From Pseudomonas phage HPP-Temi, in the sequence record PP968062.1: 64,000 bases of DNA, one strand, 5' to 3'. Both the position numbers and the translations under genes were made by a program. The notes under the pieces were generated by a model that saw only the letters and a list, made by a program, of their open reading frames with translations, made no database searches and was not told the DNA's origin. The first letter of the stretch is position 1, and every line of letters begins with the position of its first letter. Below, piece after piece: positions 23,075 through 46,271 of the stretch.

Positions 23075-24541
23075 TTAAGCTGCTTTCGCCAACCATTCCT
23101 CCAAAGACGGAAGATAGTCTTCGTGAGCATAGTTGATGATCGTTTCTACAACCGGACCTTGGAGTTCCAGGTTACCAGAGATCTCGTGTGGATCATCCGG
23201 ACTCAGTACCCAAGTATGCGGTGCGATTCGTTCAGTTGCATCAGCCAGATAGTTATCGGGCATCAGCGTCAAGTTCAGCTGGTCACCATCGAAGTCGGCG
23301 TTAGGTGCTTTCAGGCACAGTACCGACATGCTGATGGAGTTATCTCGAATGTCATTCTTAATAACGGTGATGAAGAACTGCTGTGTCGAACCACGTTGCA
23401 GAGTCGGGTTACGGTGGAACACACACGGAAGACCTTTGTACTTCGATTCTGCAATGATCTCTTTAAACAGCTGATCCAGGACTTCGTTGTACTTCAGGAC
23501 GTTCTCGTAGATGAACGAGTTCGCTTGGCGAGTCGTCATACGGAACTTGCGTTTCAGTTTGTTGATCAGGTGATACTTCAACAACTGACAGCCGACGCCC
23601 CACGGAATGTGAAGTTCATCGTAATCATGCGGGTCACTAATGGAAGTAATTACCGCACGAGCAGTCAGGTTAAGACGACCACCCAATACGTGCCTACGAA
23701 CCAGACCAGGCTTTTGCGCGATCCGTTGTTTGTCGTAGTTCTCATGGAAGATAGCCAGAAGCTTCAGTGCACGAGCTACACGGTTTTGTACAGTGATTGG
23801 TTTCAGCGGGATTGCCGAACTGCCGATACTACTAATAGTCAGTACCGCATCGATTGCTGCGCCGATCGGCTTATCGATGTAAACACCCGAGGTCGTAGAC
23901 TCTACAACGAAACAGAGTTTAGTTGGGATCGGAATGTTCTTCGGGAACAGGTGTTCTTTGTTTTGGTTAACGAATGCAGCCATCTCACCTTTGTTGGTGT
24001 TGATGATACTGCTATCGAGCAAGAACTGGAAGATCGTATCGAAGTTCTGAACGAAGTTGTTCAATCCACGTGGGAACTGGCGAGCCAGCAACTTGTCGAG
24101 TTTCCGTTTGGTTTCTTTCGAACTGATCGTATCGTAATCAAACTGATACTGCGTGTTGGTCAGATACTCCAGGAAGTCGAACTCTTTCATCGACATGTAT
24201 CCTGAAAGCATAATCCACAACTCGGGACTCACCAGACGATCCACCCCTTCCGGTGCCCGAATCCACATCGAAGGAACGATGGGTCGGTTGCTCGTGCTTA
24301 CTACTGGTGTACCACAGTTATCACAGATTACCCCGAGCTTGTATGCTTCCGTGATATGTTCACAGTCACACGATGCCGAGTTCTCGATCGCATCTGCATC
24401 CTGATAATGGGAGAACAGATAACGTTGGAATTCCTCCTTTTGTTCAGCATTGCTGGTATTGAAGTCGTTTGCGAATACTACTTTACCTCTTTGGTTAGCG
24501 AGCATTTCGTCATGATTGACAACCTGAGCATATAGACCCAT
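23075..24541 (-). CDS. RNA polymerase beta-prime N-terminal-like subunit (488 aa)
   Basis: Zn finger SASCDCEHITEAYKLGVICDNCGTPV and the catalytic motif KAPNADFDGDQLNL. AGGAAG SD. Confidence 0.8.
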   Translation of the reverse strand: MGLYAQVVNHDEMLANQRGKVVFANDFNTSNAEQKEEFQRYLFSHYQDADAIENSASCDCEHITEAYKLGVICDNCGTPVVSTSNRPIVPSMWIRAPEGVDRLVSPELWIMLSGYMSMKEFDFLEYLTNTQYQFDYDTISSKETKRKLDKLLARQFPRGLNNFVQNFDTIFQFLLDSSIINTNKGEMAAFVNQNKEHLFPKNIPIPTKLCFVVESTTSGVYIDKPIGAAIDAVLTISSIGSSAIPLKPITVQNRVARALKLLAIFHENYDKQRIAQKPGLVRRHVLGGRLNLTARAVITSISDPHDYDELHIPWGVGCQLLKYHLINKLKRKFRMTTRQANSFIYENVLKYNEVLDQLFKEIIAESKYKGLPCVFHRNPTLQRGSTQQFFITVIKNDIRDNSISMSVLCLKAPNADFDGDQLNLTLMPDNYLADATERIAPHTWVLSPDDPHEISGNLELQGPVVETIINYAHEDYLPSLEEWLAKAA

Positions 24542-24582
24542 ACCTACTTCCTATTGTGTTGCGACAAAAAAAGGAGATAGAA

Positions 24583-24602
24583 GCGGCTCCCGAAGGAGCC
24601 GC
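24583..24602 (-). terminator. hairpin gcggctcc-CGAA-ggagccgc followed on the minus strand by TTCTATCTCCTTTTTTTG
   Basis: Family member. It lies just upstream of the beta-prime N-terminal gene. Confidence 0.55.
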
Positions 24603-24934
24603 CTTATCTACTATCGATGGACCACCAACGGAGCCTGGCACGATCCTAGCATCGTCTACAAAGCTTAACCTCCGCTCTTCTCTGTAGCACTTTGACACTA
24701 GAACCTTTTACCATCCATCGTTGTTTTGATCACACGTTGCCTTTTGAGCAACTCCTTTCGGTTAAGTGATCGATCACGCCCGTGTAGCGAGAGGTCGACC
24801 TAGACTTTACGTCCACTAGACGATTACTTCGCGGAACCTACTCCTAACCGTTATCACCGAAGTGAACCAGGGTCGCAGTATTTGAATCGGGATGCCAGCC
24901 TTCTGACACCCCTATCAACCGGGGGAGTTGTTTC

Positions 24935-26800
24935 TTAGTACAGAGTACCAACCGAACCAGCCATGTTCAGCTGGTAGCCACCACCAACGCCCATGCCGTT
25001 GACAACCTGAGCGGTAGAACCGACAGCGAAGTCTTGAATCATGGTGTTGCCGGTGAAGCGCTGAGCACCGAATACCTGAGCAACGTTGTCCATTGCTACG
25101 GTCAGACCGGCAGCAGCGATCGCCTTATCCAGACCCTCGATGAATTTCGGGTTGAAGATACCGCGATGTGCACGGGTGGTGTAAGTTACAGCGCCCAGGA
25201 ACGCACGGTCGTAGTTCTTGGATTGCTTGTTGCGCAGTTCCGGATGAATGTTCGGGTTGCACTGAGTACCGTACCAGGACATCCACTCTTGCTGGTTGCC
25301 TTCTGCGGCGTTCAGAGCACCGAGAGCGTCGAGGTCACGACGGTCACGTTTCTCATCGCCATCCCAGTAGTAGCCCTTGTTGATTTCGGTACCAGTCGAT
25401 GCAATGATCGGCTGGGTGTTGAAATCGAAGAAGCGCTCGAAGCCGCCACCAACCAGGTTCTGTACAGCGCGAATGATCGCGGCAGTAGCTTTCTGTTGGT
25501 TCGGGCCACCCATGGCATCCAGGAAGATCACGTCCAGAGCCGCGTTGTCGCCCATGCGGTCCAGGTCGATCAGGAAGGACGGGTTCGGACGAACCATGCT
25601 CAGCATCAGATCAGCGAAGTTCTGATCGGTGAAGGTGTCGGACTTGGTATCGATCTTCTTGTTCAGGTTGGACAGCCAACCCAGAGCACCGATGTCACCG
25701 AGGTCCTTCACTTTACCTACCTGAGGCAGGAACTTACGAGCCCAAGCCTGACCAGCAGTTACGCGGAAGGCGTTCGACAGAGCGAAGAGATACAGTTCCA
25801 GAGTGTTTGCCTTGATCCAGTTCGCCTGACGAACGTCAGTGATCAGGATCGCCGGGGAGAACGGCGGCAGCGGTTGGGTCTGTTGACCGAACATCTGGGC
25901 TTGCGGAGTCGGAGTGTACTCCAGGGTTACCTGTACCGACACCTGGTTCAGCATGGTGTCTGCTTCGTAGAACTCGTTCTCTTGCTGACCTTGCTTCTTG
26001 GTGCGGTTCAGGCTAACGAGGATGTCCGACTTGATCGGGTTACCAACGCTGTCCATTACCGGACGACCGGAGAAGTCCATCTTGGCAGCCAGGGTTTCGT
26101 CTTGGCCACGCAGCATGGCGATCTGGAACGGAGTCTCGCCAGCTTTCTTCGCCAGAACGTCATCACACAGGTTGACGGAGCGAATCAGGATGTCTTTCAG
26201 CAGGACTTCATCTTTCAGATCGAATTCAGCCGGGATCGGCAGCGGACCGGCCGGGTGTACTTCAGCCTTCGGACGACCGGTGGTCTGACGAACGAAGTCG
26301 CAGATGCGGTTCCAGTACTGAACGGTGAAGACGTCTTGCACTTCAACGTCAACGTCGAAGCGATCGTGGCTCATGCCGTTTTGAATGGTCACTTGGCGAG
26401 GAGCCAGGGTGATTGCCGAGTTCGGCATGATCAGCGGACGAACAACGATGATGCCGTTGCCACCAGCTGCATGCTTGACGATCAGCAGAGCGGAGTAGCC
26501 AACGCGGTTAGCGTCGCGGTCGAAACGCAGGATCTGGAAATCGTTTTCCAGGTCTTGATGGTCGATGGCATCTTTGCCAACGCGGGTCATTACTTGCAGA
26601 GCTTCGCTCGCACGGGCGTCGCCGCCATCAGTACGACCGGAGCGTTTGAACATGTTCGGCAGGCCGGAGATACCGCCTTGCAGAGTTTGAGGAGCGGATT
26701 GTTGCATGCGAGGAGCTTCCTGTTGTGCGCGCGGAGCAGCTTGAGCCGGACCGTTGTTGGCTTGAGCTTGGGTGTTTTGAGCGTCGGTATCACGAATCAT
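24935..26800 (-). CDS. abundant early protein (621 aa); candidate chimallin (nucleus shell) by size, position and expression signals
   Basis: Extreme codon bias (cgt/ctg/ggt/acc/gaa), which also makes the antisense frame open for 595 aa. Q/A-rich N-terminal tail. An early-promoter-like element lies 65 nt upstream. It is immediately upstream of the beta-prime N-terminal gene, as phiKZ gp54 is to gp55. No sequence motif confirms the call. Confidence 0.45.
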   Translation of the reverse strand: MIRDTDAQNTQAQANNGPAQAAPRAQQEAPRMQQSAPQTLQGGISGLPNMFKRSGRTDGGDARASEALQVMTRVGKDAIDHQDLENDFQILRFDRDANRVGYSALLIVKHAAGGNGIIVVRPLIMPNSAITLAPRQVTIQNGMSHDRFDVDVEVQDVFTVQYWNRICDFVRQTTGRPKAEVHPAGPLPIPAEFDLKDEVLLKDILIRSVNLCDDVLAKKAGETPFQIAMLRGQDETLAAKMDFSGRPVMDSVGNPIKSDILVSLNRTKKQGQQENEFYEADTMLNQVSVQVTLEYTPTPQAQMFGQQTQPLPPFSPAILITDVRQANWIKANTLELYLFALSNAFRVTAGQAWARKFLPQVGKVKDLGDIGALGWLSNLNKKIDTKSDTFTDQNFADLMLSMVRPNPSFLIDLDRMGDNAALDVIFLDAMGGPNQQKATAAIIRAVQNLVGGGFERFFDFNTQPIIASTGTEINKGYYWDGDEKRDRRDLDALGALNAAEGNQQEWMSWYGTQCNPNIHPELRNKQSKNYDRAFLGAVTYTTRAHRGIFNPKFIEGLDKAIAAAGLTVAMDNVAQVFGAQRFTGNTMIQDFAVGSTAQVVNGMGVGGGYQLNMAGSVGTLY

Positions 26801-26867
26801 GATTTGTTCCTATGTTTGTAACGTTTCTTGATCAAGAATGAGATCCAACAGTGTATTGGATTCAAAA

Positions 26868-26898
26868 CTGTTATATAGATCTCAGATTTTTTTTAATG
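26868..26898 (-). promoter_or_regulatory. early-promoter-like element, subfamily A
   Basis: ctGTTATATAGATCTcagattttttttaatg. Confidence 0.5.
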
Positions 26899-27008
26899 CA
26901 TTATAGACCGGAGGACCCGCTATAAAAGCAAGGTCATTTGAGGACAGTCAGTCTTCACATACTGTATTACATATTTGTTTCCTTAAGATTCAAACTCAGT
27001 ATGCTGAG

Positions 27009-27090
27009 TACTGGGGCATAGCTCAAATAGCAGGTCAGGACCTCACGGTCATTTCCTGTATTAAATAACTAGCCCCAGTATTTCTTTTCT
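27009..27090. terminator. long-range hairpin tactggggc...gccccagta (9 bp enclosing 54 nt) followed by TTTCTTTTCT (plus strand); second hairpin ctcag-tatg-ctgag adjacent
   Basis: Lies right after the stop of 27090..28649. It has U-tracts on both strands. Confidence 0.4.
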
Positions 27091-28649
27091 TACTCTTCGG
27101 TTGGAAGGTCAAAGAAGTCGTCTACGTTACCTCGGATACCGTGAACGATTGCGGCTGCTTCTTTACGAGAAGTTGCTTTAGCCAGTTGAGTAGCGTGCCG
27201 AATGAACACGTCCGAATACTCCTTCATCAGGGTGAGTTCCTGAGAACTGAGCTTGTCAGACTTCTTACCCAGTTGCTCTGCGATCTCACGGAGACCCGAA
27301 AGCCCATGACGAGCTTCCAACTTACCATTGACCACGCTATCGCGAACGAAAGCTTTAATGATGTCGAATGCCCAGAGGCGTTCTACGTCATCAGTGATCT
27401 TGGTGAAGTCAATCGACATCGGGTCACGGAAAAATTCCCCGCGACGAATGCTATCAGCAGAAAGAGCGGAAATTCGCATAGAGCGAGTGTTACCACCTTC
27501 CTTATTGATCGCATGCGCTTCTTTGGTAATGCGAGCCGATTCATCGATCAGGAGTTGAGCGATAGACGGACCAGCGAACTCTTCACGCAGTGCTTTGCGG
27601 TCAAGTTCATCTTGAGTCGGTTCAAGACTGGTAGTAAGGCGTTGTGCAATAGAAGGACGAGCCAGATCTTCCGGGCGAAGGACCAGCTTGTCTTCTGCTT
27701 CTGCGTAGTACATGTCAGTCAAACCAGGGTTCTGGAGCTGATTATTGATATTGGTGCTGTGTTCAACACCATTAACAACTTGGTCATAGCTCCGGAAAAT
27801 AGAGGGAACAGAACGCAAACGGGTGTTGAAATCCTTGCTATTAGCAATTGGTTCAAACGGAACATTGGGAGGGGAGTTACGTTGAGTACACTCGATAGCT
27901 TTGTTTTCCATACGACCGCTACTAACAAGCCACTCTTCGAACATGACTCCATTGATCTGACCTTCGGCACAGCACTTCTTATAGAAGCTGATGTACTTTT
28001 GGTAGGTATGTACACGGAGTCGGAATGCTTCTCCGTAATGTTCCATCAAATGGTTAACAAGGGGTTTGATGGTAAACAGAGGTTGAGGGGCATTGCTCTG
28101 GTTTTTGATGTCACCTTTCAAGGCCTTCGCCAACTCACGCAAGAACTTGACGTTGTAAGTGCAGAAGTCAGCGCAGGATTCCGGAGGCAACAGCATACCA
28201 CAGATTTCGGTAATGGCTTCAGCGATCAGTTCTTCATCGGTGTTACCGATGTTCAGGTATTCGTCCCGTTGATCTACACCTTCAACCAGTTCAGTATAAC
28301 GCCCAGATTCCAGAAGCTCGATACCTTTAGTGCGATTGCACCACCAGTCTTCGAACAGAGAATCACGAGTACCGGGAGCCTTCAGGAAAGAATCGTAATG
28401 CTCAATCATTGCTTGGACGCGATCCATGGTAGTCTTGGCGAACTGGGCACGGATGTGGCGATCAAGGGTATACGGAGAGACAGAGATGTCCGGAATGTTT
28501 TCCATCAGTTCGTTGAACATCGCTGTAACGAACTTCGGATTCTGGGTAGCAAAGAGCTGGTGATTCTGGGCACCCATAGTTTGATGGAAGAAGCGATCCA
28601 TTGCGGCGGTAACGATAGCGCGCCGATGGGGAGTATAACGGTTATCCAT
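27090..28649 (-). CDS. hypothetical protein (519 aa)
   Basis: AGAGGA SD. Confidence 0.65.
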   Translation of the reverse strand: MDNRYTPHRRAIVTAAMDRFFHQTMGAQNHQLFATQNPKFVTAMFNELMENIPDISVSPYTLDRHIRAQFAKTTMDRVQAMIEHYDSFLKAPGTRDSLFEDWWCNRTKGIELLESGRYTELVEGVDQRDEYLNIGNTDEELIAEAITEICGMLLPPESCADFCTYNVKFLRELAKALKGDIKNQSNAPQPLFTIKPLVNHLMEHYGEAFRLRVHTYQKYISFYKKCCAEGQINGVMFEEWLVSSGRMENKAIECTQRNSPPNVPFEPIANSKDFNTRLRSVPSIFRSYDQVVNGVEHSTNINNQLQNPGLTDMYYAEAEDKLVLRPEDLARPSIAQRLTTSLEPTQDELDRKALREEFAGPSIAQLLIDESARITKEAHAINKEGGNTRSMRISALSADSIRRGEFFRDPMSIDFTKITDDVERLWAFDIIKAFVRDSVVNGKLEARHGLSGLREIAEQLGKKSDKLSSQELTLMKEYSDVFIRHATQLAKATSRKEAAAIVHGIRGNVDDFFDLPTEE

Positions 28650-28690
28650 TTCATTTTCCTCTTTTGGTATTAGGGTGGATATATCAAAAC

Positions 28691-28720: not shown

Positions 28721-28730
28721 GACGAAAACC

Positions 28731-31717: not shown

Positions 31718-33898
31718 TTAGTAGAAGTCGGAGATCAAACGGGTGTTACCTTTATCGATCAAGAAGATACCCAGGGATTCAAAAATCAAGTAGAACACAC
31801 CCATGGTGTTGGAGATGATCGTGCGAACATCAGCTACACGGGTAATCTCATCGGGAATACCGCGGTTTTCCACAACTGTCATCGGAACGTGGAAGTTGGC
31901 GATACCAGTCTTGTTGTTTTCCATTGCCCAACGTTTAAGGCGCATGGCAAGACCTTTATCTTCGATAGTCTCAACCCACTCATTAAAGCGAGTCTTGTTA
32001 TCGGTTGTTACAGAGATCTTGACGAAGCTGTACGGAGGTTCTTCGATTTCACCAAACGACGGGCTGCAAACTTCTTTCCAGAAAGTGTGCTTAGCATAGG
32101 TGGCGTTATCTTCAGACTTGTACGCATCGATCTTCTTGCACTTACCGGTGGTGAGGTATTCAGCTTTACCAGAACGAACCGAAGCGATGATGTCACGTTC
32201 CAGGTCTGCTACTTCTTTCAGCATTGCGGGAAGATCAAGTGGCTCTTCTGCTTTAATGGACTTAATGATGTCATCCATCATCCGCTTAGCAGTCTTGTTG
32301 ATCTTCGGTGGAACTTTAGAATCTCGCAGACCTACACCTTTAACTTCCATACGAGCTTTAGCGAACATTACGCCCTCCTGCGCGTCCTGAGACGCGTAAT
32401 AGTGTTTTGAACGTGTGGTCAAGGAAAGTACAGCGAAGTAGTATTCGTTCTTCATAGCCAACAAACGGAGCTTCTCTTTCGATACGCCCATGTTAGCCGA
32501 CTGAATGGCGAGGATGTGTGCAACCACACAGGACACCAGGAACACCAATGCAAACACCAGTCGCTTAGCTTCAGCGGTAAAGGTGATCTTACCAAAGAAC
32601 TCTTCTACCCAGTACTGCATGGTAAACATCGTGGAGTCAGTGTCGGAGATGACAGCTGCGCGGCGGTAAGCAGTTGGGAAAGCATGAATGCTAGAAGGTA
32701 CGTTCTTGGTCAGAAGGAGAGCATCAATCAAACGCTTGTATTTCCACAGCGTATCAGAGATGTTCTTACCTGTTGCATAAATCGTGTCGAATACTTCAGG
32801 GGATTCTTTGCTCAGCTTATCATAGTTCCGACCTTTAACCAGATCGAAGCAAATGAAGTTAGCCAGGAGTTGCAAGTCACCATCGTAAGTGTTGTAAACT
32901 TCTTTGGTAACCTTCTGTTCGTCAGTACCTAGTTGAGCAAGCTCTGTCAGGAAACTACGAATCAAAACTTTGTTGTGTTTGTAGACATGATACAGATCGC
33001 CAACATACATAACAGCCGCACGCTGCAATGGAGTGAAACCAGTAACCAACATCCGAATCTGTTCAGTGTAGTCACGATTCTGCCAGTAGTGCGCTGTGGA
33101 ATACAGAACCATTTCAATTACTTCATCCGGAGTCGGGTAATGCATATTGAAATGATCAATGCAATCTTTCAACTTCTTCATGTCGGTGTTGTTAGCAATC
33201 GACAGAAGGTTGGCTTTGGTAATCTCCGGACTATAGTAGTGGCGATTACCAGTGATGAACTTCTCGTTATTCGCGTTAGCATACGAGGTTGCAGTACGAC
33301 AAGTAGACGTCAAGCTGGAGTGAGTCGACTTGTAATACAGAATCGTTGCCGCGCTTACGGTTGCTCCACTGTAGGAGTTATTGTTAATTTTGAAGTTTTC
33401 TTGTTCGCCTTTGCGAACCTGTGCGAGTTCAGCTGCTTCCGGGGTACCTTCACCCTCAAGACGCATTTGTTCTTTCTTAACACGTTTACGGTTTGCTACA
33501 CCTTCAGCGATATACTGAGAGTGGGTAGACTGGCGCTGAGATTCCGGAAGATACACGGTCATACTCGGCGACAGCAAAAGATTCTGTTTTTCTACACGGC
33601 CTAAGAAACCCATGAAGGTGGTTTCTTTCAAACTACGATCGCCTTGAGGATTCTTGTCTAATATCAAGGTCTTTGGATTGTTCAGGGCAAACTGACCCTG
33701 AGGGCGAGACTGTTCCTTCACAAACTCCAAGCAGGTTTCAAATGGATCCCCCGTCATCGCGGAGATGTACAGAGCTTGATCGTTAAGATAACCTTCGATG
33801 ATGTTCAGGTCACGGGTGTAATCTTCAACCGGCAACAAGAACGGGTTAGGAGTGCTGATCTGGTCCATATTTCCTCTCTTAAAATTTAATCTTTTCAA
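31718..33898 (-). CDS. family-B DNA polymerase, polymerase-domain protein (726 aa)
   Basis: Motif B KINNNSYSGATV (K-x3-NS-x-YG) and motif C VISDTDSTMF (YGDTDS). A degenerate motif A may be SMTVYLPES. AGAGAGGA SD. Confidence 0.6.
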   Translation of the reverse strand: MKRLNFKRGNMDQISTPNPFLLPVEDYTRDLNIIEGYLNDQALYISAMTGDPFETCLEFVKEQSRPQGQFALNNPKTLILDKNPQGDRSLKETTFMGFLGRVEKQNLLLSPSMTVYLPESQRQSTHSQYIAEGVANRKRVKKEQMRLEGEGTPEAAELAQVRKGEQENFKINNNSYSGATVSAATILYYKSTHSSLTSTCRTATSYANANNEKFITGNRHYYSPEITKANLLSIANNTDMKKLKDCIDHFNMHYPTPDEVIEMVLYSTAHYWQNRDYTEQIRMLVTGFTPLQRAAVMYVGDLYHVYKHNKVLIRSFLTELAQLGTDEQKVTKEVYNTYDGDLQLLANFICFDLVKGRNYDKLSKESPEVFDTIYATGKNISDTLWKYKRLIDALLLTKNVPSSIHAFPTAYRRAAVISDTDSTMFTMQYWVEEFFGKITFTAEAKRLVFALVFLVSCVVAHILAIQSANMGVSKEKLRLLAMKNEYYFAVLSLTTRSKHYYASQDAQEGVMFAKARMEVKGVGLRDSKVPPKINKTAKRMMDDIIKSIKAEEPLDLPAMLKEVADLERDIIASVRSGKAEYLTTGKCKKIDAYKSEDNATYAKHTFWKEVCSPSFGEIEEPPYSFVKISVTTDNKTRFNEWVETIEDKGLAMRLKRWAMENNKTGIANFHVPMTVVENRGIPDEITRVADVRTIISNTMGVFYLIFESLGIFLIDKGNTRLISDFY

Positions 33899-34480: not shown

Positions 34481-34924
34481 TTAAGCACTCATAGGTTTGC
34501 GCGAAACCACAAATGCAAATGAACCGTTCATATCGATCGGCCACATTGACAGTACATCCAGCAAGGGATTATTCAAGCTGAATTCCTTGAAGACTTTATA
34601 CATCTCCACCACATTGATGTTTTCATCGTCAAGCAGATCATCAGTAGCACCTGCTGATTCGAGGATGTGTTCTCCGAAGTTGTTCATGACTTCACGCTGG
34701 AAGTAGAACAGGATACGCTTCCGAATTTGTTCTACCGGAAGCTTAATATCCTTACCCACGGTACCCGCCAGTTCATCTTCTAGCGAGTCATCCACTTCTT
34801 TCTTATCGCGCTCCACGATCCAACGATCCTGGTAAAAGCGCAAGCCGAACCGCTCTGCATACAGAGCTCCAGCTATGGTTCCTGCAATGACGAGATCATG
34901 CATCATCTTCCGGGCCCAACCCAA
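34481..34924 (-). CDS. hypothetical protein (147 aa)
   Basis: ORF on the coding strand. It slightly overlaps the upstream gene. Confidence 0.5.
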   Translation of the reverse strand: MGWARKMMHDLVIAGTIAGALYAERFGLRFYQDRWIVERDKKEVDDSLEDELAGTVGKDIKLPVEQIRKRILFYFQREVMNNFGEHILESAGATDDLLDDENINVVEMYKVFKEFSLNNPLLDVLSMWPIDMNGSFAFVVSRKPMSA

Positions 34925-35678
34925 TCTGTTCTTTGGTTACGTATAACGGAGAGTTGATCTGCCGTTGATAAGCAGCTCGATCTTCCGGTGGCAACATTGC
35001 CAGTTGGAGTTCCTGTTCTCGTTCAAGTCGGGCTTGTTCACGGAAAGGATTGTCTTCAGGTCTATACGGTTCACGTACATGAGGGCCATCAGCTACATCG
35101 CCAACATAAGGTGTGTCGGGGTTATCTCCCACTAGAACATAATAGCTGTCATACTGACCAACTGCAAAGTTCTCAATCTTATCGATCAGACACCCGTTGT
35201 TTTCGAGGTCGTCGATTGCTGGTTTTAGACACTCTCCTAACATACCGGTAGTCTCAGCAAACTTAGCTTCCAGATAAACCATCGTCGTAGGATCTTGTAC
35301 CAATTGTGCTTTTACACTAGGGAAGTACTCATCGACGTAGTGAGCGAAACCCACGTTATCTTTGGCTGGAGCTGTGAGAATGTACTCAACGTGTTTGTTA
35401 ACGCAATCCTGCATCAAGGCAATGACCGAGTCTTCTTCAGCAACGTGATCGTTTTCGTTCTTCGGAACGTGGGACTGGATCATTTTGTTTCGAACAACAT
35501 CGGTCATCTGAACAATCTGCCGATCAATCACTTTCGAGTTGATCATGATCCCGCAAGTACGGGGACCAGCAGATTCTTGGATCTGGGTTTGAGCGATGTG
35601 ATGGGCTCTATTAGCCACACCAATTAGATCAATGGTGCCGTCCGAATTGAAGACACCGTGCATTGCTTGAACGTTCAT
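34896..35678 (-). CDS. hypothetical protein (260 aa)
   Basis: GGAGG SD. Confidence 0.55.
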   Translation of the reverse strand: MNVQAMHGVFNSDGTIDLIGVANRAHHIAQTQIQESAGPRTCGIMINSKVIDRQIVQMTDVVRNKMIQSHVPKNENDHVAEEDSVIALMQDCVNKHVEYILTAPAKDNVGFAHYVDEYFPSVKAQLVQDPTTMVYLEAKFAETTGMLGECLKPAIDDLENNGCLIDKIENFAVGQYDSYYVLVGDNPDTPYVGDVADGPHVREPYRPEDNPFREQARLEREQELQLAMLPPEDRAAYQRQINSPLYVTKEQIGLGPEDDA

Positions 35679-39689: not shown

Positions 39690-40607
39690 ATGTTCGAGTC
39701 TCTACTCGCTACATTAGTTAAAGCTAATCTTGGGTGGCAGGGGATTCCCGTACAGGGTCCTAACATGCCTGTTACTCGGGTAGGTGCGCCTGCAACTCTA
39801 CTTAATGGTAAAGTGTATATTGCAGGTGGTGGCACGCAAGGTGGGACAAACGGCATATCCACCACGACATTAATGACGTATGATCTCGCCACTGGTACGT
39901 ATGATCAAAACTTCAGTACTGTTCCATCGTCTGTATATTTCTCTGGTATCGTTAATGACGGAACTTATCTATATCACCTAGGTGGGGCTACATTCCCTGG
40001 TAATGCTGTTAATAGCACCTTTGTTAGAATTGATCCAGTTACAAAAGAAAAGCTGGTTTTGAAATCGCCACCGGTGGCACGGTATGATTTCCATATGTTC
40101 TATGAGTCAGGCTTTATTTACACGTATGGCGGTACCCCGTCAAACGACGTGCTAATGAAATATAATATCGCTACTGACACATGGGAAACTGTAACCCAGC
40201 CAACTCTTCGTCCGCCAGCTAGAACTTCTTCTGCTAGTGTTTATTTGAATGGTAAATTCTATCTAATTGGTGGCGTTAGTAATCGTAGCGATTTCTGGGA
40301 ATATACGTTGTCCACAAATACGTGGGTACAACTAAGTAACTTCCCGATCACTACCTGGGTTGGTAGTGGTTTCACTATGGAAGGTCGGATATTCCTGATG
40401 CCTGGTGCACCATTAATCAATAACAGCGCTAATAAAAATATCTACGAATATTTGCCCAATGAGAATAAATGGGTATTGTTCAAGAACGTAGCTAACATTG
40501 TATTCAATTCGAGTATAGTGTCAGATGGAAAGCGTTTGTATTGTTTCGGTGGATCTGGTAACAGTTCTGTTAACGCAGCCAGTAACGCAATGTATTATCT
40601 AAAGTAA
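39690..40607 (+). CDS. Kelch-repeat beta-propeller protein (305 aa)
   Basis: Six repeats of the form hydrophobic-x-GG...Y/W: KVYIAGGGTQGG..TYDLATGTY, YLYHLGGATFPGN, FIYTYGGTPSN..DTWE, KFYLIGGVSNRSD..NTWV, RIFLMPGAP..NKWV and RLYCFGGSGNS. GAAGGTG SD. Confidence 0.6.
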   Translation: MFESLLATLVKANLGWQGIPVQGPNMPVTRVGAPATLLNGKVYIAGGGTQGGTNGISTTTLMTYDLATGTYDQNFSTVPSSVYFSGIVNDGTYLYHLGGATFPGNAVNSTFVRIDPVTKEKLVLKSPPVARYDFHMFYESGFIYTYGGTPSNDVLMKYNIATDTWETVTQPTLRPPARTSSASVYLNGKFYLIGGVSNRSDFWEYTLSTNTWVQLSNFPITTWVGSGFTMEGRIFLMPGAPLINNSANKNIYEYLPNENKWVLFKNVANIVFNSSIVSDGKRLYCFGGSGNSSVNAASNAMYYLK

Positions 40608-40622
40608 AAAAAATAAAGCATA

Positions 40623-40646: not shown

Positions 40647-40653
40647 TATGCCA

Positions 40654-40884: not shown

Positions 40885-40895
40885 GTTGATATTCC

Positions 40896-41120: not shown

Positions 41121-41150
41121 GTCGTGATACCTTTAGGGTTTATTATCACG

Positions 41151-41186
41151 TTTGTAATATAGCCTTTAAATTGGTTTGAATGTAAA
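41151..41186 (-). promoter_or_regulatory. early-promoter-like element, subfamily B (TTTGTAATATAGCCTTTAAATTGGTTTGAATGTAA)
   Basis: Identical over 35 nt to the copy at 54525. Confidence 0.5.
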
Positions 41187-41203
41187 AAGAAAAACGGAAT
41201 AAA

Positions 41204-41223
41204 GCCCACCCCGAAGGGTGGGC
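41204..41223 (-). terminator. hairpin gcccacc-CCGAAG-ggtgggc
   Basis: Family member downstream of 41243..41671. Confidence 0.5.
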
Positions 41224-41242
41224 TATTCTTTAGCAAGTCTAA

Positions 41243-41671
41243 TCACCAGTAGCGGCGAAGGAAGACATCGAGATCTTGTACAGCGCGATGGTCTTTAGCA
41301 CGGATTTTGGGGTCACGTGTTTCCACCTTCTCCAGAGCCTCAAAAGATTCTTTCAGATGGGTCGGATGGAGTACTTGAATCTCGTAGCTGTTAACTACTT
41401 GTTTCTGTTGCTCCGGTGTCATTTTCCGCAAACGGGTGAAATCGTAGAAGATGATGAACTTACCTTGATCATCTTCAGTCTCCTCGTTCCCTGCTTCAAT
41501 CCAACGATTGTACTGAGCGGGGGTCAAGAAGATGTCGATGGTATTGACTTCCTTACGCAGGTTGTAAATAACCATTGCACTGAGGTGACCTAGAGCCATC
41601 TCTTCCGGTGGACACTTGTTGGTAGTTGCCCAGGTTTTCATGATTTCGACAATGTGTTCACGTTGGGACAT
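41243..41671 (-). CDS. hypothetical protein (142 aa from the internal ATG; the track ORF starts at the GTG at 41749)
   Basis: The ATG at 41671 avoids a 52-nt overlap. Confidence 0.45.
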   Translation of the reverse strand: MSQREHIVEIMKTWATTNKCPPEEMALGHLSAMVIYNLRKEVNTIDIFLTPAQYNRWIEAGNEETEDDQGKFIIFYDFTRLRKMTPEQQKQVVNSYEIQVLHPTHLKESFEALEKVETRDPKIRAKDHRAVQDLDVFLRRYW

Positions 41672-41697
41672 GTGGGTTACTCGATAGTGATTACATA

Positions 41698-41946
41698 TCA
41701 GTAGTTTTGGAGTGTCTTTCCAATACAGAACTGAGCCGTGCTGATCCACTGCCGAACCTCACCCTGCGTAGAGGTGAGCTCGATCTCATCTCCTTTCAAT
41801 GTAGCGGTGAGGTACTCTTTAGTATGTCCACGCGACCGACTGGTCAGAGTGATAACGTCACCTTTCTTCTTTACAGCCAGGCGAGTATAGCTGTCACCCG
41901 CAACACAGGTTTCATCCAGCCCGAGATCGAGCCACTCGCGAATCAT
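41698..41946 (-). CDS. hypothetical protein (82 aa from the internal ATG)
   Basis: The ATG at 41946 lies 14 nt after the upstream stop. The longer ORF to 42051 would overlap by 92 nt. Confidence 0.4.
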   Translation of the reverse strand: MIREWLDLGLDETCVAGDSYTRLAVKKKGDVITLTSRSRGHTKEYLTATLKGDEIELTSTQGEVRQWISTAQFCIGKTLQNY

Positions 41947-41959
41947 TTCTTTAAGCTGT

Positions 41960-42526
41960 TCATGTGGGCTTTGCACAAGACTTCTCCATTTCTTTAATTG
42001 CCAGTAGAATACCAGCACGTGATGGAACGGGTTCATCACCAGAGTAATCAAACGTCACTACCTTATTGGTGAGGTCGACCTCTACGGGCCATTGTCTCAG
42101 ACGCGACGCGGTATGACGGATCCACAGAATATCCTTATCGATAGGAGAGCTGTAGAACTCCAGGTTATTATGCACACTGTCCTTCCACGATTCACGGGGA
42201 AGTTTGGACACCCAATCGACTACAGTCTTTTCGAACGAACGATTGACGATGAACTGTAGCGCGTTGTAGATTTCCTCTTGAACACTTTCCTGATCTTCCG
42301 CCCAAAGGCAGTTGATGCGATCAAGACGTTTCGAAAGGGGATCAAGTTCAAACACAACGTCCGGGCACAGGCGTTTACTAGGATCAGTACCCTGCATCAA
42401 AATAGAACGTTGGTCCGGGGAATACCAGAGTTGGAGATGGCGTTTGGTCCGAGTATCGATACATGCAGAACGCTGACGGCCGAGAAGTCTCCAGATCTGG
42501 ATCAGGGTAGCAATATCGTTAAACAT
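41960..42526 (-). CDS. hypothetical protein (188 aa)
   Basis: AGGAGA SD. Confidence 0.55.
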   Translation of the reverse strand: MFNDIATLIQIWRLLGRQRSACIDTRTKRHLQLWYSPDQRSILMQGTDPSKRLCPDVVFELDPLSKRLDRINCLWAEDQESVQEEIYNALQFIVNRSFEKTVVDWVSKLPRESWKDSVHNNLEFYSSPIDKDILWIRHTASRLRQWPVEVDLTNKVVTFDYSGDEPVPSRAGILLAIKEMEKSCAKPT

Positions 42527-42546
42527 TTCTGTCTCCTAAGGACATA

Positions 42547-42568
42547 TGCTCTCCCTTTCACGGGAGAG
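42547..42568 (-). terminator. hairpin gctctccc-TTTCAC-gggagagc followed by ATTTATG
   Basis: Family variant with a 6-nt loop. Confidence 0.45.
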
Positions 42569-42571
42569 CAT

Positions 42572-43069
42572 TTATGCCGCTTTTTCTTTTGATGTTTCGG
42601 TTAGTAACACACCCCATCCGGGATGACTCTTTCGGTTGAACAGTAACGGCTTACTTCGTATATACGGAGCATCCTCTGTTAGAACGGTGAATGTACAATG
42701 ACCGGGGTTGTCATCAATCTTGAAATAGAAGTTATCTTTCAGGTCATCTACCTTAGTAATGTTCAGTGGAATCAACATCCCACCCCCATGAACATACCAA
42801 CGTTTGTAAATCCTTTTAGCAAGCCTATCCTCGACCACGGGATTAGACTGGAACCGAGCTATCCTCAAACGCATTCCATTGACTTCAGACCACGCATCAA
42901 CTTTGTCGTAACATGTAACTCCGTCCTTCTGGAATACAAATACAAAGCCTTCAAGAACGCCGACTAGTGTGACGGCATGGTGTAACATCGCTGTGTAACT
43001 GGAGAGTTCGAGGTCAAGCTCAGCTGCCATTAGCTCATCGAGCTTTTTCGCTGCTGACTTAGCCATCAT
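42572..43069 (-). CDS. hypothetical protein (165 aa)
   Basis: ORF on the coding strand. Confidence 0.55.
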   Translation of the reverse strand: MMAKSAAKKLDELMAAELDLELSSYTAMLHHAVTLVGVLEGFVFVFQKDGVTCYDKVDAWSEVNGMRLRIARFQSNPVVEDRLAKRIYKRWYVHGGGMLIPLNITKVDDLKDNFYFKIDDNPGHCTFTVLTEDAPYIRSKPLLFNRKSHPGWGVLLTETSKEKAA

Positions 43070-43146
43070 TCCTCCTTAGAGGTTCAATCAGGTTTCATTG
43101 GTGATTCCTTACTTCTGTGGGTTAGTACAAAGGATTGTGGTATCAG

Positions 43147-43569
43147 TTAAAGCTTCGCATAACGCTCATAGCGAGCGATACCACGTTCACTGACGTCCTT
43201 ACGCCACTTAACCATTTCAACGGCGTTCTGACGCGCTACAGTGGCCCAGCCGCGTGCATCATCCATACGGGTACGTTGTTGGATAGGGCTGCCCGACAAT
43301 GCTTCGACGAACTCATCGTCAGGAAGATCTTCTTCTTTGTAGAAGGAATCGTCAGCCTGGATGAAATACACCAGATGCTGGAGAGCTGCTCGGGTTTCTG
43401 AATCGCTAACCAATGCCTTCATTGCAGAACGCATGGTGTTGTTATCGACATCACAGTAGATAGCCAGTTCGCCAATGGTAATACGATCACCTTGGGAAAC
43501 CGTACGCATCAGAGCTTCAGTACTATCAACAGCGATCTTTGTAAAACGTTCAGCGGTAAGCTTGATCAT
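43147..43569 (-). CDS. hypothetical protein (140 aa from the ATG; the track ORF starts at the TTG at 43584)
   Basis: AGGGAA SD. The ATGA overlaps the upstream stop. Confidence 0.5.
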   Translation of the reverse strand: MIKLTAERFTKIAVDSTEALMRTVSQGDRITIGELAIYCDVDNNTMRSAMKALVSDSETRAALQHLVYFIQADDSFYKEEDLPDDEFVEALSGSPIQQRTRMDDARGWATVARQNAVEMVKWRKDVSERGIARYERYAKL

Positions 43570-43808
43570 TTTTGTTCCCTGCAAATGAAAACGATTTTGG
43601 TGGAACGGTTCACGTTACTCACATGGAGTTCGTTATTGTCTCCACGATGATAATCCGCGATCCAGTTATTACTGTTATACAAACTGCGGTGTTGCTGAAC
43701 TACCGCTTTACATACATCAAGAGAAGACACAGGTACAGTTGATTCCTTTACCGATGGAAGTTCGCCAACCACGGCAGTAGAAATAACAGTAGCTAGAACC
43801 CAAGACAT
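43566..43808 (-). CDS. small protein with a signal-peptide-like N-terminus (80 aa)
   Basis: MSWVLATVISTAVVGELPS.... GGAG SD. Confidence 0.5.
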   Translation of the reverse strand: MSWVLATVISTAVVGELPSVKESTVPVSSLDVCKAVVQQHRSLYNSNNWIADYHRGDNNELHVSNVNRSTKIVFICREQK

Positions 43809-43823
43809 AATTAATCTCCAAGA

Positions 43824-43841
43824 CGGAATAAAAGGGGAGCC
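43824..43841 (-). terminator. hairpin ggggagc-CGAA-gctcccc
   Basis: Downstream of the PhuZ gene. Confidence 0.5.
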
Positions 43842-43857
43842 GAAGCTCCCCAGTTAT

Positions 43858-44805
43858 TTACAGAACGAAACCGTCATCAGAACGGTTGTCATCGATATCA
43901 ACGATTGCTGCACGCTGGGTATAGCGAACCTGCTGACGATGGTGTTCTTGTTTCTGATCCAGCAGCGATTTGATGCGTTCCTGAATACCTACCGAATTGA
44001 TTACGAAGTGCAGCTGTTCAGACAGAGCATCTTCATCTTCCGGAGAGGCGATACCAACAGTGCGAACGAACGGGTTACCATAGGCAACTTCTTTCGCGGC
44101 ATCGGTGTACAGGGAAGCAACAGAGATCATCTCGGGAACTGCGGCAGCTTCCTGACGAGAAGTGTGGATGTGCAGTTCACACAGTTGCGGCTGGATGTAG
44201 CTGTGCTTGTTGGTGAAACGAGCCCAGTGATCCAGGTCCAGAACATCCAGACGAGCGTGCTTCTGGTTGGACAGGTAGATCAGCGAGTGTACAGCGAACA
44301 CTGCATCTTTGTCGATCTCGGAGTATGCGACGCCATTGACGTTCTCGATCGGACAGATGCTGATCGGAGTATTGGTTGCAGCAGCGATACCTTCCAGGGT
44401 CTTCATGGTGTCGATGTCGTTCTGAAGAACTTCAGTCGATTCAATACCACTGATGACCACAGCTACAACAGTCTCACCAGCTTTTGCCAGAGCCGATACC
44501 AGCAGCGGACCGAGAACCGAACCAGAACCACCACCCATGGAGAACAGAACAACGTTGAAGTCGCCTGCCGGGTAGCGTTCGAGGAAAGGAGCGATCTGAT
44601 GACGAACCTTCGGCATGATGAATGCACGATTCTTACCTGCACCACGGGTACCCTCTGTCAGGTAGACGCGTTCAAGATCGTGATCAGCAGTCACGTTCTT
44701 ATCGCAGGTATCGATGTACACCAGATCCGGATGCCATTGAAGGTTGACGCCAACGTTCAGACCAGCACCACCACAGCAGTATACACGAGTTTTAACTTTA
44801 GTCAT
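43858..44805 (-). CDS. phuZ: PhuZ-like phage tubulin (315 aa)
   Basis: N-terminal GTP-binding loop RVYCCGGAGLNVG. Tubulin/FtsZ signature variant SMGGGSGSVLGPLL. An acidic C-terminal tail ...DIDDNRSDDGFVL. AGAGGA SD. Confidence 0.8.
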   Translation of the reverse strand: MTKVKTRVYCCGGAGLNVGVNLQWHPDLVYIDTCDKNVTADHDLERVYLTEGTRGAGKNRAFIMPKVRHQIAPFLERYPAGDFNVVLFSMGGGSGSVLGPLLVSALAKAGETVVAVVISGIESTEVLQNDIDTMKTLEGIAAATNTPISICPIENVNGVAYSEIDKDAVFAVHSLIYLSNQKHARLDVLDLDHWARFTNKHSYIQPQLCELHIHTSRQEAAAVPEMISVASLYTDAAKEVAYGNPFVRTVGIASPEDEDALSEQLHFVINSVGIQERIKSLLDQKQEHHRQQVRYTQRAAIVDIDDNRSDDGFVL

Positions 44806-44823
44806 TTCGATGTTTCCTCTTGA

Positions 44824-45126
44824 TTAACCTTCTACGATTGAAATCAGTTCGCCACGCTCAGCTTCGTTGAGCTGGGCAAACAGGTATTCACCTACTTCAG
44901 CAGAGAGGGCTCCGAGTTGCCATTGAGCTTTCTCTTCATCGGTAGCTTGAGCAAACACTTCCGGATGGATTTCTTCCAAGAATACCAGAGCGAGTTTATT
45001 GAACTGGCTCAGGGTATTGATGTTGAACTGGATAATGAACTTGTCGACTGCGCGCTTATCATCAAAGCAAACAGTCTTCGTGGTCATTCCAAAGTGAATG
45101 CTACCAAACTCTTCAATTTCACACAT
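44824..45126 (-). CDS. hypothetical protein (100 aa)
   Basis: ORF on the coding strand. Confidence 0.5.
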   Translation of the reverse strand: MCEIEEFGSIHFGMTTKTVCFDDKRAVDKFIIQFNINTLSQFNKLALVFLEEIHPEVFAQATDEEKAQWQLGALSAEVGEYLFAQLNEAERGELISIVEG

Positions 45127-45149
45127 AGTAACCGTAACTCCGGTATTTG

Positions 45150-45914
45150 TTAGCTAAGAACTAACTCTTGGTCTTTGAACGAATTGAGATAGACTTTAAC
45201 CTGAACATCGACTCCAAGATAGTAACCTACCATCAAGGTTACCGTACAGTTATCGTGAACCATGGTGTTAACAATGGATACATTGTCCAGATTAGCAAAA
45301 TTCTTGATTGTCGGCGTTATCCGATAAATCTTCGGAATCGACTCGAAGTCAAACTCGTGTCTTTCGCTAACCTTCAGCGTATTCAGATCCACGAACGTGA
45401 TTGTCTTTGGACGACAATATTCATCAACTTCGACATGTTTAATCGCAGATGGCGTATTCTCAGGAACTAGAAGCTGATATACACGATCATTACTGTAGAA
45501 AGTAATACGACCCATCTCTTGGTTCAGCCATTCAGTCGGCTTATAGAAACTAACTGAGTGCACCGCGGTATCAAAGCTCATGGAGCTCTGTACATCGAAG
45601 AATACGTAGCCATCGGAGATCATGTGCTCTACCAGTTTCTGATAGTGCTCACCCAGACGGTGTAAAGTTTGGCGAGTAGCAATAGAACCGAAGAACGCAC
45701 CCAAGTTCTGGCGGGTATGCTCCAGGTTAGATTCACTCGGAGCGTAAGTCTCCTCGAACTCTTTCTTGGTAACGTTCCATTCGGAGATCTTCAGGAAGAT
45801 GTCATTGGTAACAGGATGAACTGCACCAAAGGTGATTTCATCTACGTTTTCAATAACTAGGAAGTTTTTAAAGATCTCTTTGATCTTGGGGAACTCGGTT
45901 CCAATGGACTTCAT
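45150..45914 (-). CDS. hypothetical protein (254 aa)
   Basis: ORF on the coding strand. Confidence 0.55.
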   Translation of the reverse strand: MKSIGTEFPKIKEIFKNFLVIENVDEITFGAVHPVTNDIFLKISEWNVTKKEFEETYAPSESNLEHTRQNLGAFFGSIATRQTLHRLGEHYQKLVEHMISDGYVFFDVQSSMSFDTAVHSVSFYKPTEWLNQEMGRITFYSNDRVYQLLVPENTPSAIKHVEVDEYCRPKTITFVDLNTLKVSERHEFDFESIPKIYRITPTIKNFANLDNVSIVNTMVHDNCTVTLMVGYYLGVDVQVKVYLNSFKDQELVLS

Positions 45915-46039
45915 TTCTTTTCCTCTTTGGGGTGTACCAGGAAGGTAAAGCCCGATCCATCATTGTGGATCACCAGTTCCAGAGTACCACCCGTGTTGAT
46001 GGCATGTTGCATGAGACGGTTGTAATTGATTGCGCTCAT
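45911..46039 (-). CDS. small hypothetical protein (42 aa), not in the ORF track
   Basis: GAGGAAA SD, then ATG. MSAINYNRLMQHAINTGGTLELVIHNDGSGFTFLVHPKEEKK. Its stop overlaps the next ATG (AAATGAAG). Confidence 0.35.
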   Translation of the reverse strand: MSAINYNRLMQHAINTGGTLELVIHNDGSGFTFLVHPKEEKK

Positions 46040-46049
46040 TTGTATTTCC

Positions 46050-46271
46050 TCAGATGATGATTTCTGAAACGGGTACCACGCGAATATTCAATACAGTCGG
46101 AGATTGATGCTCGCGACTAACCGTTGCCATTATCACAGCGGGATAAGAGCAACGAATTGTGTTGGGGGAGATCATGTCCACTTTGAATTTCTGGTACATG
46201 TGTTTGATAAGTTCATGGACATCGTCATCGTTTTTTACAAGGAACAAAGAATCGGGGATCAATGTTTTCAT
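46050..46271 (-). CDS. hypothetical protein (73 aa)
   Basis: First gene downstream of the promoter-like element at 46308. Confidence 0.45.
   Translation of the reverse strand: MKTLIPDSLFLVKNDDDVHELIKHMYQKFKVDMISPNTIRCSYPAVIMATVSREHQSPTVLNIRVVPVSEIII

Follow-up and report, generated by a model that had tools for sequence, protein, structure and literature searches.

The window analyzed here, a stretch of 64,000 nucleotides (nt) from Pseudomonas phage HPP-Temi (sequence record PP968062.1), encodes on its minus strand a homolog of chimallin (ChmA), the nuclear shell protein, a homolog of the spindle-forming phage tubulin PhuZ, and several subunits of a nonvirion RNA polymerase (nvRNAP), all with counterparts in the jumbo phage phiKZ. 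A previous sequence-only reading of the same DNA had proposed that these hallmarks of the phiKZ-like nucleus-forming phages lie together in the window, and homology searches now recover ChmA, PhuZ, and the nvRNAP alike. The window almost certainly comes from a phiKZ-like jumbo phage that infects Pseudomonas aeruginosa and forms a nucleus, probably a sister species of the Pawinskivirus group, and the region would be the conserved early block that builds and runs the phage nucleus. Nothing was found in the sequence comparisons that contradicts the gene identifications. The features on which the argument rests are given below, with lengths in amino acids (aa) and base pairs (bp) and with open reading frames abbreviated as ORFs.

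46308..46326, minus strand: early-promoter motif ATCTTAGATCTATATTACC opening the PhuZ unit, one mismatch to the motif, 37 nt upstream of the ORF start at 46271
44824..46271, minus strand: ORFs ahead of PhuZ in the ORF list, 46050-46271 (73 aa), 45150-45914 (254 aa), and 44824-45126 (100 aa)
43858..44805, minus strand: PhuZ, spindle-forming phage tubulin, 315 aa
43834..43851, minus strand: predicted intrinsic terminator of the PhuZ unit, GGGGAGC-UUCG-GCUCCCC and then UUUUAUU, from a terminator scan and sequence reading
26801..27089, minus strand: chmA control region, with a distal block (27084-27054), a proximal promoter (26887-26869), and leader hairpins
24935..26800, minus strand: chimallin ChmA, nuclear shell protein, 621 aa
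24576..24923, minus strand: putative structured RNA element, helices 1-18, closing in an intrinsic terminator
23075..24541, minus strand: nvRNAP beta-prime N-terminal subunit, homolog of phiKZ gp55, intronless, 488 aa
15789..17366, minus strand: nvRNAP fifth subunit, homolog of phiKZ gp68, with its own predicted early promoter at 17416-17398 (exact to the motif)
10228..12339, minus strand: nvRNAP beta C-terminal subunit, homolog of phiKZ gp71-73, intronless
8228..10201, minus strand: nvRNAP beta-prime C-terminal subunit, homolog of phiKZ gp74

The 621-aa ORF, which the ORF list places at 24935..26800 on the minus strand as the earlier reading had it, had been taken there for chimallin by inference from its position and expression signals. 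It matches the Pfam model PF25677 (Chimallin_Phikzvirus) with 1086.5 bits (cut-off 27), its residues 1-621 covering profile positions 1-627 of 627, and the PHROG family phrog_4795 (nuclear shell protein) at 3.9e-199. A phmmer search of the PDB retrieved the chimallins of PhiPA3 (8fne/8fv5, E=5.2e-262), 201phi2-1 (7sqq and 8igg, ~2.7e-202), and Goslar (7sqt, 1.6e-15); the closest structures in this sequence search are chimallins, and not a capsid or other fold. Identity by tblastn reaches 97% with the annotated shell proteins of PS119XW, phiHQ, and BRkr, 53% with 201phi2-1 gp105, and 48% with phiKZ gp54. Given these Pfam, PHROG, and solved-structure matches, homology identifies the 621-aa protein as chimallin beyond reasonable doubt. 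The chimallin lattice is joined by an N-terminal segment (NTS) and two C-terminal segments (CTS1 and CTS2), corresponding to residues 48-61, 590-611, and 622-631 in 201phi2-1, where deletion of these segments abolishes assembly (bioRxiv 10.1101/2022.02.14.480162). In an alignment of five genera that includes 201phi2-1 (Serwervirus, which provides reference ChmA and PhuZ structures), none of the three segments of the window protein contains a gap, and R56, S57, G58, Q590, R591, F592, G594, V603, A607, Q608, V609, and the C-terminal Y631 are invariant.

The chmA gene lies inside the conserved early block directly upstream of the gene for the nvRNAP beta-prime N-terminal subunit, 393 bp from 23075-24541, and so adjoins it in the manner of phiKZ gp54 and gp55, as had been noted from the sequence. 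The strong codon bias reported for it also holds, being the strongest among the 42 window ORFs of at least 150 aa (effective number of codons [Nc] 33.5 vs. a median of 44.8; GC content at third codon positions 0.66), but the word “extreme” is fair in a relative sense only, because PhuZ comes next with an Nc of 34.6.

The 315-aa ORF at 43858-44805 contains all of the PhuZ-like motifs attributed to it, namely CCGGAGLNVG, GGGSGSVLG, and the acidic tail IVDIDDNRSDDGFVL. It matches phrog_4733 (tubulin PhuZ) at 6e-105 and the PhuZ/TubZ-type C-terminal domain PF22334 with 139.4 bits (cut-off 27) over profile positions 1-88 of 88. A GTPase fold, the lack of which would have spoken against the assignment, is indicated by sequence alignment to solved PhuZ structures: residues 4-314 align to 3r4v/3rb8/3j5v of 201phi2-1 at ~5e-90, and phiKZ gp39 (3zbp) is matched at 1e-61. 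The generic Pfam Tubulin model gives 25.9 bits, below its cut-off of 33, and such a subthreshold score is usual for PhuZ. The GTPase signature comprises the T1-loop G12/G13 and the T4-loop GGGSGS at 91-96; the catalytic residues D187 (T7 loop) and D190 (H8) and their partners K36 and K58 are all found at the numbering of 201phi2-1, as are R54 and D82. The acidic C-terminal knuckle (D303 and D305, plus D306) and its lateral-contact partner R217 are also present, with R217, D303, and D305 again numbered as in 201phi2-1, and the filament partner R238 is replaced conservatively by Lys (for the roles of catalytic and filament-contact residues, see bioRxiv 10.1101/311498). On this evidence the tubulin-like protein is PhuZ.

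PhuZ lies 17.06 kilobases (kb) from chimallin, in agreement with the 17 kb given previously, and its placement at the end of an operon of its own holds at the level of sequence: the promoter motif at 46326-46308 precedes the unit, and a strong predicted terminator (43851-43834) follows the PhuZ stop codon by 7 nt and would thus end it. Among the ORFs ahead of PhuZ, those of 73 and 100 aa are weakly similar by tblastn to PhiPA3 gp024 and gp027, respectively, and the 254-aa ORF at 45150-45914 has no Pfam or PHROG match. Most of the 100-aa ORF (44824-45126, minus strand), just upstream of PhuZ, is missing from the Pawinskivirus phage HHBS36_1, which matches it over 25 aa only, where a 105-bp ORF is annotated; as it is nevertheless 33% identical to PhiPA3 gp027, this looks like local gene loss or replacement among close relatives. 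A second conserved noncoding block (46423-46543, minus strand) is located between a terminator and the promoter of the PhuZ unit. Its core at 46444-46468, GGGGGGGACCC-TTT-GGGGGGGTCCC, lies inside an inverted repeat with TATG in front and shows no change between the window, HHBS36_1, PhiPA3, and the gp37-gp38 spacer of phiKZ, the 121-nt block as a whole being 81% identical to phiKZ; this block may act as a promoter of the middle or late class or represent a small RNA.

The proposal of a split multisubunit RNA polymerase (RNAP) in the window was likewise correct. The product of 23075-24541 matches chain A (gp55) of the phiKZ nvRNAP structure 7ogp at 1.1e-238 and the Pfam model PF00623, and carries the catalytic NADFDGD motif, within PNADFDGDQ, at residues 414-420 of its 488. 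Three further subunits are encoded downstream: the gp68 homolog matches chain B (7.7e-205), the gp71-73 homolog chain C (1065 bits; PF00562), with its residues 383-455 aligning to Escherichia coli beta 1061-1129, and the gp74 homolog chain D (1078.8 bits; phrog_3015, 1.6e-230). Four of the five nvRNAP polypeptides (gp55, gp68, gp71-73, gp74, and gp123) are therefore found in the window, each matching its own 7ogp chain at E <=1e-204. The RNAP genes at 23075-24541 and 10228-12339 are uninterrupted here, whereas phiKZ has HNH-containing inserts in gp55 and gp71-73 (gp56 and gp72); the gp55 homolog of PS119XW aligns with a gap of ~330 bp that reflects an insertion not present in the window, and PhiPA3 has an annotated, interrupted gp71-like feature of 4.6 kb.

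To compare the gene order, 48 window ORFs were searched by tblastn against phiKZ 25,738-67,489 and PhiPA3 12,187-54,291. The sequence-only reading had stated that the gene order differs from that of phiKZ. This is refuted, since the window is strictly collinear with both phages and only inverted, its orientation being the reverse complement of the phiKZ convention. With rising window coordinates, the phiKZ homologs appear in falling order as gp74, gp71-73, gp70, gp69, gp68, gp67, gp66, gp65 ... gp59, gp55, gp54, and continue with gp52, gp50 ... gp43, gp42, gp41.3, gp41, gp39, gp34, and gp32; the homologs of gp52 and gp42 are encoded on the opposite strand in the window as they are in phiKZ. 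PhuZ and chimallin are 12.7 kb apart in phiKZ, compared with 16.4 kb in PhiPA3 and 17.06 kb in the window. The type phage of the nucleus-forming group, phiKZ (Phikzvirus), keeps this collinearity from gp74 to gp32, but its proteins are far more diverged from those of the window (48% identity for ChmA, 37% for PhuZ, 67% for gp55) than those of closer relatives. Of the phages whose ChmA structures have been solved, PhiPA3 (Miltoncavirus; gp028 PhuZ, gp053 ChmA/PhuN, gp054 RNAP, gp061 ChmC) is the closest (8fne), showing 67%, 69%, and 85% identity for ChmA, PhuZ, and the gp55 homolog, respectively.

The nearest genomes are those of the Pawinskivirus phages PS119XW, PA1C, HHBS36_1, BRkr, phiLBG22, and phiHQ, which align to 90-99% of every third of the window with 83.5-85.6% nucleotide identity; PS119XW is classified in this genus. 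Their gene content and order match the window across all 64 kb, their protein identities reach 97% for ChmA, 99% for the beta-prime N-terminal subunit, and 94% for PhuZ, and both spacers flanking chmA are 96-98% identical. The practice of the International Committee on Taxonomy of Viruses places the genus boundary at ~70% and the species boundary at 95% nucleotide identity, genome-wide, and the identity of the window to these phages stays under this customary species limit, which would fit a new species within the genus. No exact copies of the ChmA, PhuZ, and 519-aa orphan proteins encoded in the window (the last described below) were found in a collection of 15 billion sequences. Taking the ~84-85% DNA identity to Pawinskivirus and the absence of these three exact proteins together, the phage is probably a real, as yet unsequenced sister species of the Pawinskivirus group. 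We regard it as very improbable that the window instead represents a known isolate, or an assembly or chimera artifact and no new free-living species, in which case the label of a new member would be empty. Apart from the mere 64 kb seen, nothing speaks for this alternative: the identity to the nearest genomes is even over all three thirds of the window, without breakpoints, and the divergence from HHBS36_1 is concentrated at third codon positions (82-83% identity vs. 98-99% at positions 1 and 2), the mark of real evolution under purifying selection. The missing exact matches among the 15 billion sequences also count against it.

The Chimalliviridae core genes in the window comprise homologs of phiKZ gp54, gp55, gp59, gp67, gp68, gp69, gp71-73, and gp74, all in phiKZ order; the core status of the chmA, nvRNAP, imp1/picA, imp3, and chmC/imp6 genes in this family has been described (PMC12676376, PMC11077065). 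Some points weigh against the assignment as a whole. The species-level statement is based on 64 kb, about one fifth, of a genome of ~300 kb; neither virion RNAP genes nor chmB were seen within the 64-kb window, which leaves the completeness of the system not demonstrable from it; and no homolog of gp123, the remaining nvRNAP subunit, was present among the window ORFs scanned, although this absence is uninformative because the phiKZ gp123 gene lies far from the block. It should also be noted that promoter use, transcription start site (TSS) positions, and terminator efficiency, as discussed in the following, were deduced from the sequence together with published data for phiKZ and 201phi2-1.

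A de novo k-mer search returned a minus-strand motif with the core CTATATTACA, the extended form of which, ATCTnAGATCTATATTACA, occurs in five copies in the window versus 0.04 expected by chance. The gp68-like gene has an exact copy in front of it (17416-17398), chmA has one with a single mismatch (26887-26869), and another (46326-46308) precedes the initial ORF of the PhuZ unit; the early-promoter-like element announced upstream of the 621-aa gene is thus one of the five. Early promoters of jumbo phages have been described as AT-rich motifs of ~10 nt centered near -10 (PMC7598289), a description that the predicted window motif fits. The chmA leader had been called long, and it does measure 68 nt from promoter core to ATG versus 31 nt for the gp68-like gene, which makes it longer than usual but not extreme. 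The blocks of the chmA control region are kept in HHBS36_1, PhiPA3, and phiKZ, which shares the early-promoter block upstream of chmA, and the region is 97.9% identical to HHBS36_1 versus ~82% at third codon positions of the neighboring genes. Upstream of the proximal promoter, a distal conserved block, AAATACTG...ATTTAATACAGGA at 27084-27054, resembles the TACT motif described for the middle promoters of phiKZ and may be a second promoter with a leader of ~250 nt. Two start sites are reported for phiKZ gene 54, a primary early TSS and a secondary middle one, and the gene opens an operon of six genes (PMC8244752); it is also cotranscribed with orf53 (PMC10914365, PMC12676376); it is this published orf53-chmA transcript, together with the distal block, that suggests the second leader.

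The chmA leader further contains the perfect palindrome TTCTTGATCAAGAA (26838-26825, minus strand), which is the same in phiKZ and reads ACTTGATCAAGT, with both halves altered, in PhiPA3; a second hairpin, TCCAA-TACACTG-TTGGA, is found just upstream of it at 26844-26860 (minus strand). Sigma-70-type promoters were not enriched in two scans of window positions 22500-48000 (7 vs. 14.7 expected and 21 vs. 23.7), and terminator-like hairpins with UUCG loops occur there at about twice the shuffled frequency, both of which are consistent with transcription by the phage's own polymerases, independent of that of the host. A recurrent 9-mer, GGCTTTATG, often extended to GGGCTTTATG, is present at 10 sites on both strands (e.g., 30296, 37249, 47498, and 53798 on the minus strand; 29842, 40642, and 46631 on the plus strand), where it forms the 3' end of a terminator hairpin running directly into TATG. 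As TATG is the core of phiKZ late promoters, this suggests back-to-back terminator-promoter junctions.

The spacer between chmA and the RNAP gene measures 393 bp (24934-24542) and contains a conserved element of ~330 nt. It is the best-conserved DNA common to the window and phiKZ within the region compared: the structured spacer and its terminator are 83-86% identical in phiKZ (47,538-47,899), whereas the flanking coding DNA is 56% (chmA) and 64% (gp55) identical, and HHBS36_1 differs even less (96.7% identity vs. ~82% at third codon positions). Using blastn, the element was found in 56 records, all of P. aeruginosa jumbo phages, always between the same two genes and nearly always unannotated. 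In PhiPA3 the spacer is longer (515 bp): two blocks are inserted, and its 3' half has diverged strongly. We slightly favor the explanation that the spacer acts as an RNA with a function of its own, beyond that of a terminator-bearing 3' untranslated region (UTR), and that selection on this RNA accounts for the conservation; it could be a processed noncoding RNA (ncRNA), or a cis element for the stability, export, or localization of the chmA message or for conditional read-through into the polymerase gene.

Besides the conservation above that of flanking coding DNA and of third codon positions, this explanation draws on the fold. The spacer fold beats 100 of 100 shuffles (z = -4.0), and RNAalifold on an alignment of 11 sequences gives 117 consensus pairs, among them 14 with compensatory double changes; these include a UA to CG change in the long-range closing helix, a pair with three types (UA/CG/AU), and a UA to GC swap within Phikzvirus. 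Shuffled controls yield 6.6 +/- 1.5 such pairs (none of 500 reaching 14) and slid partners only 1-2, and 96.6% of cells are paired in the consensus fold compared with 35-45% in slid controls. The numerous G-U pairs restrict the fold to the sense strand, the two PhiPA3 insertions are confined to hairpin loops, and the substitution rate in paired columns is half that in unpaired ones (10% vs. 20%). No reading frame is conserved, which also argues for an RNA: two tiny ORFs are annotated in some records, but a coding function of the spacer can be ruled out by this lack of a frame, by indels of 1-2 nt, and by the absence of a 3-nt periodicity of mismatches.

Several observations count against a functional RNA. 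Only three deep lineages carry the element, so that the number of independent compensatory events is small, and the structure was scored on the same sequences from which it was derived. With a covariance model, no copy of the element was found in 201phi2-1, Phabio, D6, or Noxifer; the chmA-RNAP spacer of D6 and Noxifer is ~85 nt long, and 201phi2-1 and Phabio carry a small ORF in its place (in 201phi2-1 the 189-aa gp106), from which it follows that nucleus-forming phages in general do not require the element. SL2, a Phikzvirus, has Pawinskivirus-type sequence in helices 15-16 of the element (215-373 vs. alignment columns 370-430), which indicates recombination between genera inside the spacer and could inflate its apparent conservation.

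The same mosaic pattern in SL2 would also be expected if the spacer had been conserved through recent horizontal exchange among P. aeruginosa jumbo phages, for instance as the remnant of a mobile element or intron, without functional selection. The confinement of the element to phages of a single host species agrees with such exchange, as do the mobile introns and HNH genes in the neighboring RNAP genes of this group. We nevertheless consider it unlikely: the element keeps the same position between the same two genes in 56 of 56 records, none of the group I or II introns of Rfam is matched even when E values up to 10 are allowed, and the PhiPA3 copy is far more diverged, as vertical descent predicts. 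Substitutions, moreover, are compensatory and fall mostly in unpaired positions, neither of which is predicted by neutral drift after a transfer.

Searches for known RNAs gave no match to Rfam in the window at gathering thresholds, and at E up to 10 the spacer had only weak matches to terminator-like small RNAs (12.9-22.3 bits vs. cut-offs of 42-55); ARAGORN found no transfer RNA (tRNA) or transfer-messenger RNA (tmRNA) in it. On these results, a group I or II intron, a tRNA, a tmRNA, or a known riboswitch was rejected as a reading of the spacer. Two scans of IMG/VR for divergent copies of the element gave PA7 and PhiPA3 as the only real ones, the other 37 stretches of the first scan having no nhmmer match, and one metagenome scan returned none. 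The last helix of the spacer is a predicted intrinsic terminator of 13 pairs (24608-24576), followed by a run of seven U at 24572-24566 that ends ~25 nt ahead of the ribosome-binding site of the polymerase gene. An antiterminator formed by pairing of the helix-18 segment GGCUCC with the 3' arm of this terminator was considered and dropped, as the segment is deleted in PhiPA3. Returning to the functional RNA, its novelty is less certain, since it may already be among the 17 5' UTR-derived ncRNA candidates of phiKZ (PMC10914365). Our proposal that the ~330-nt element at 24923-24576 (minus strand) is an undescribed structured RNA of the P. aeruginosa phiKZ-like phages (Phikzvirus and Pawinskivirus, and diverged in PhiPA3) is a tentative one.

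The remainder of the block encodes further proteins with counterparts in phiKZ and PhiPA3, as well as one orphan (identities by tblastn where a phiKZ or PhiPA3 protein is named).

34896..35678, minus strand: homolog of phiKZ gp47 (Imp2, cargo-specific import factor), 29% over 146 aa to PHIKZ047 and 42% to PhiPA3 gp044
31718..33898, minus strand: divergent family B DNA polymerase, homolog of phiKZ gp50 (68%) and PhiPA3 gp047 (84%), PF20286 at 1041 bits and phrog_2927 at 8e-297
27090..28649, minus strand: fast-evolving orphan of 519 aa, the next gene upstream of chmA, with 42% identity to the Pawinskivirus ortholog
22440..23054, minus strand: homolog of phiKZ gp59 (Imp3, import factor), 61% over all 204 aa to PHIKZ059
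17491..18243, minus strand: homolog of ChmC/Imp6 (phiKZ gp67, PhiPA3 gp61), nucleus-associated and RNA-binding, 54% to PHIKZ067 and 71% to PhiPA3 gp061
14134..15768, minus strand: homolog of PicA/Imp1 (phiKZ gp69), core nuclear protein importer, 50% over 526 aa to PHIKZ069, 67% to PhiPA3 gp063, phrog_3141 at 9e-163
12819..14159, minus strand: homolog of phiKZ gp70 and PhiPA3 gp64, 48% to PHIKZ070 and 61% to PhiPA3 gp064

The assignments of Imp2 to orf47 and of Imp3 to gp59 follow published work (bioRxiv 10.1101/2024.03.27.586873), as do the functions of ChmC/Imp6 (PMC11077065; bioRxiv 10.1101/2024.03.27.586873) and PicA/Imp1 (PMC11087766; bioRxiv 10.1101/2024.03.27.586873), and nuclear-shell association has been reported for phiKZ gp70 and PhiPA3 gp64 (PMC11077065). 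By analogy with this literature, the Imp and ChmC homologs are expected to act in nuclear import and RNA binding. The block as such has already been described as a highly conserved cluster (PMC11077065), and chmA, orf55, the imp genes, and chmC of phiKZ took no transposon insertions (PMC12676376). Genes for the tail sheath and virion proteins are found toward the end of the window, at 55-64 kb.

The 519-aa gene upstream of chmA departs from this conservation: it shares just 42% identity with its Pawinskivirus ortholog, although the genes on both sides are at ~97%, and this is the lowest value among 37 full-length matches, the other 36 of which range over 54-99%. It has no Pfam or PHROG match, and a search of 5.8 billion proteins and a profile search of 1.84 billion representatives each returned a single homologous cluster, in the profile search only the known ortholog. 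An AlphaFold2 model from a two-sequence alignment (mean predicted local distance difference test score 47.8, predicted template modeling score 0.29) was too poor for a fold search. Other phages have different genes at this position, phiKZ the small gp53 and PhiPA3 the 550-aa gp052, which has no similarity to the orphan, and phiKZ orf53 tolerates transposon insertions (PMC12676376); the slot upstream of chmA is a variable one. The rapid diversification of the orphan next to chmA is a pattern typical of genes in conflict with host defenses. Relative to phiKZ, the window also has an additional gene for a 305-aa Kelch-repeat beta-propeller protein (39690-40607, plus strand) beside the gp42-like gene; it is 96% identical in HHBS36_1, and no counterpart is present at that position in phiKZ or PhiPA3.

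Based on the characterized relatives, the system would work as follows. The injected virion RNA polymerase would read the AT-rich early promoters before chmA, the PhuZ unit, and the gp68-like gene, and codon-optimized ChmA would be made in bulk and self-assemble via its N- and C-terminal tails into a square lattice around the replicating phage DNA. PhuZ would polymerize into dynamic, GTP-dependent filaments that center and rotate the nucleus, the Imp proteins would license the import of proteins, and the nvRNAP would transcribe middle and late genes inside the shell. The arrangement of chmA and the beta-prime N-terminal gene suggests that both form one transcription unit, within which the ~330-nt RNA fold that appears to be under selection and then the attenuating terminator (24608-24576 and its U7 run) intervene. 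With this folded RNA and strong terminator before the polymerase gene, most transcripts would stop after chmA, and the polymerase gene would be reached by read-through only, which would give a high ratio of shell to polymerase. This read-through model fits the situation in 201phi2-1, where the beta-prime gene lacks an identified promoter of its own and the closest early one is ~3 kb upstream (PMC11512511).

The phage nucleus, the PhuZ spindle, and the split RNAPs are textbook features of the phiKZ-like phages, and the gene inventory in itself therefore matters little. What the window adds is one species-level relative of Pawinskivirus, which is useful for comparative work because at ~84% identity the synonymous sites have diverged enough to reveal selection. 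The one item that may be new is the conserved RNA fold that separates the shell gene from the polymerase gene. Together with its terminator, it may control the amount of polymerase relative to shell, or the handling of the chmA message. If this holds true, the element would be a cis-acting one, affecting the most abundant message of the early phase, and could set the shell-to-polymerase ratio by regulated termination, or stabilize, localize, or export the chmA mRNA, and it might also be processed into a stable ncRNA.

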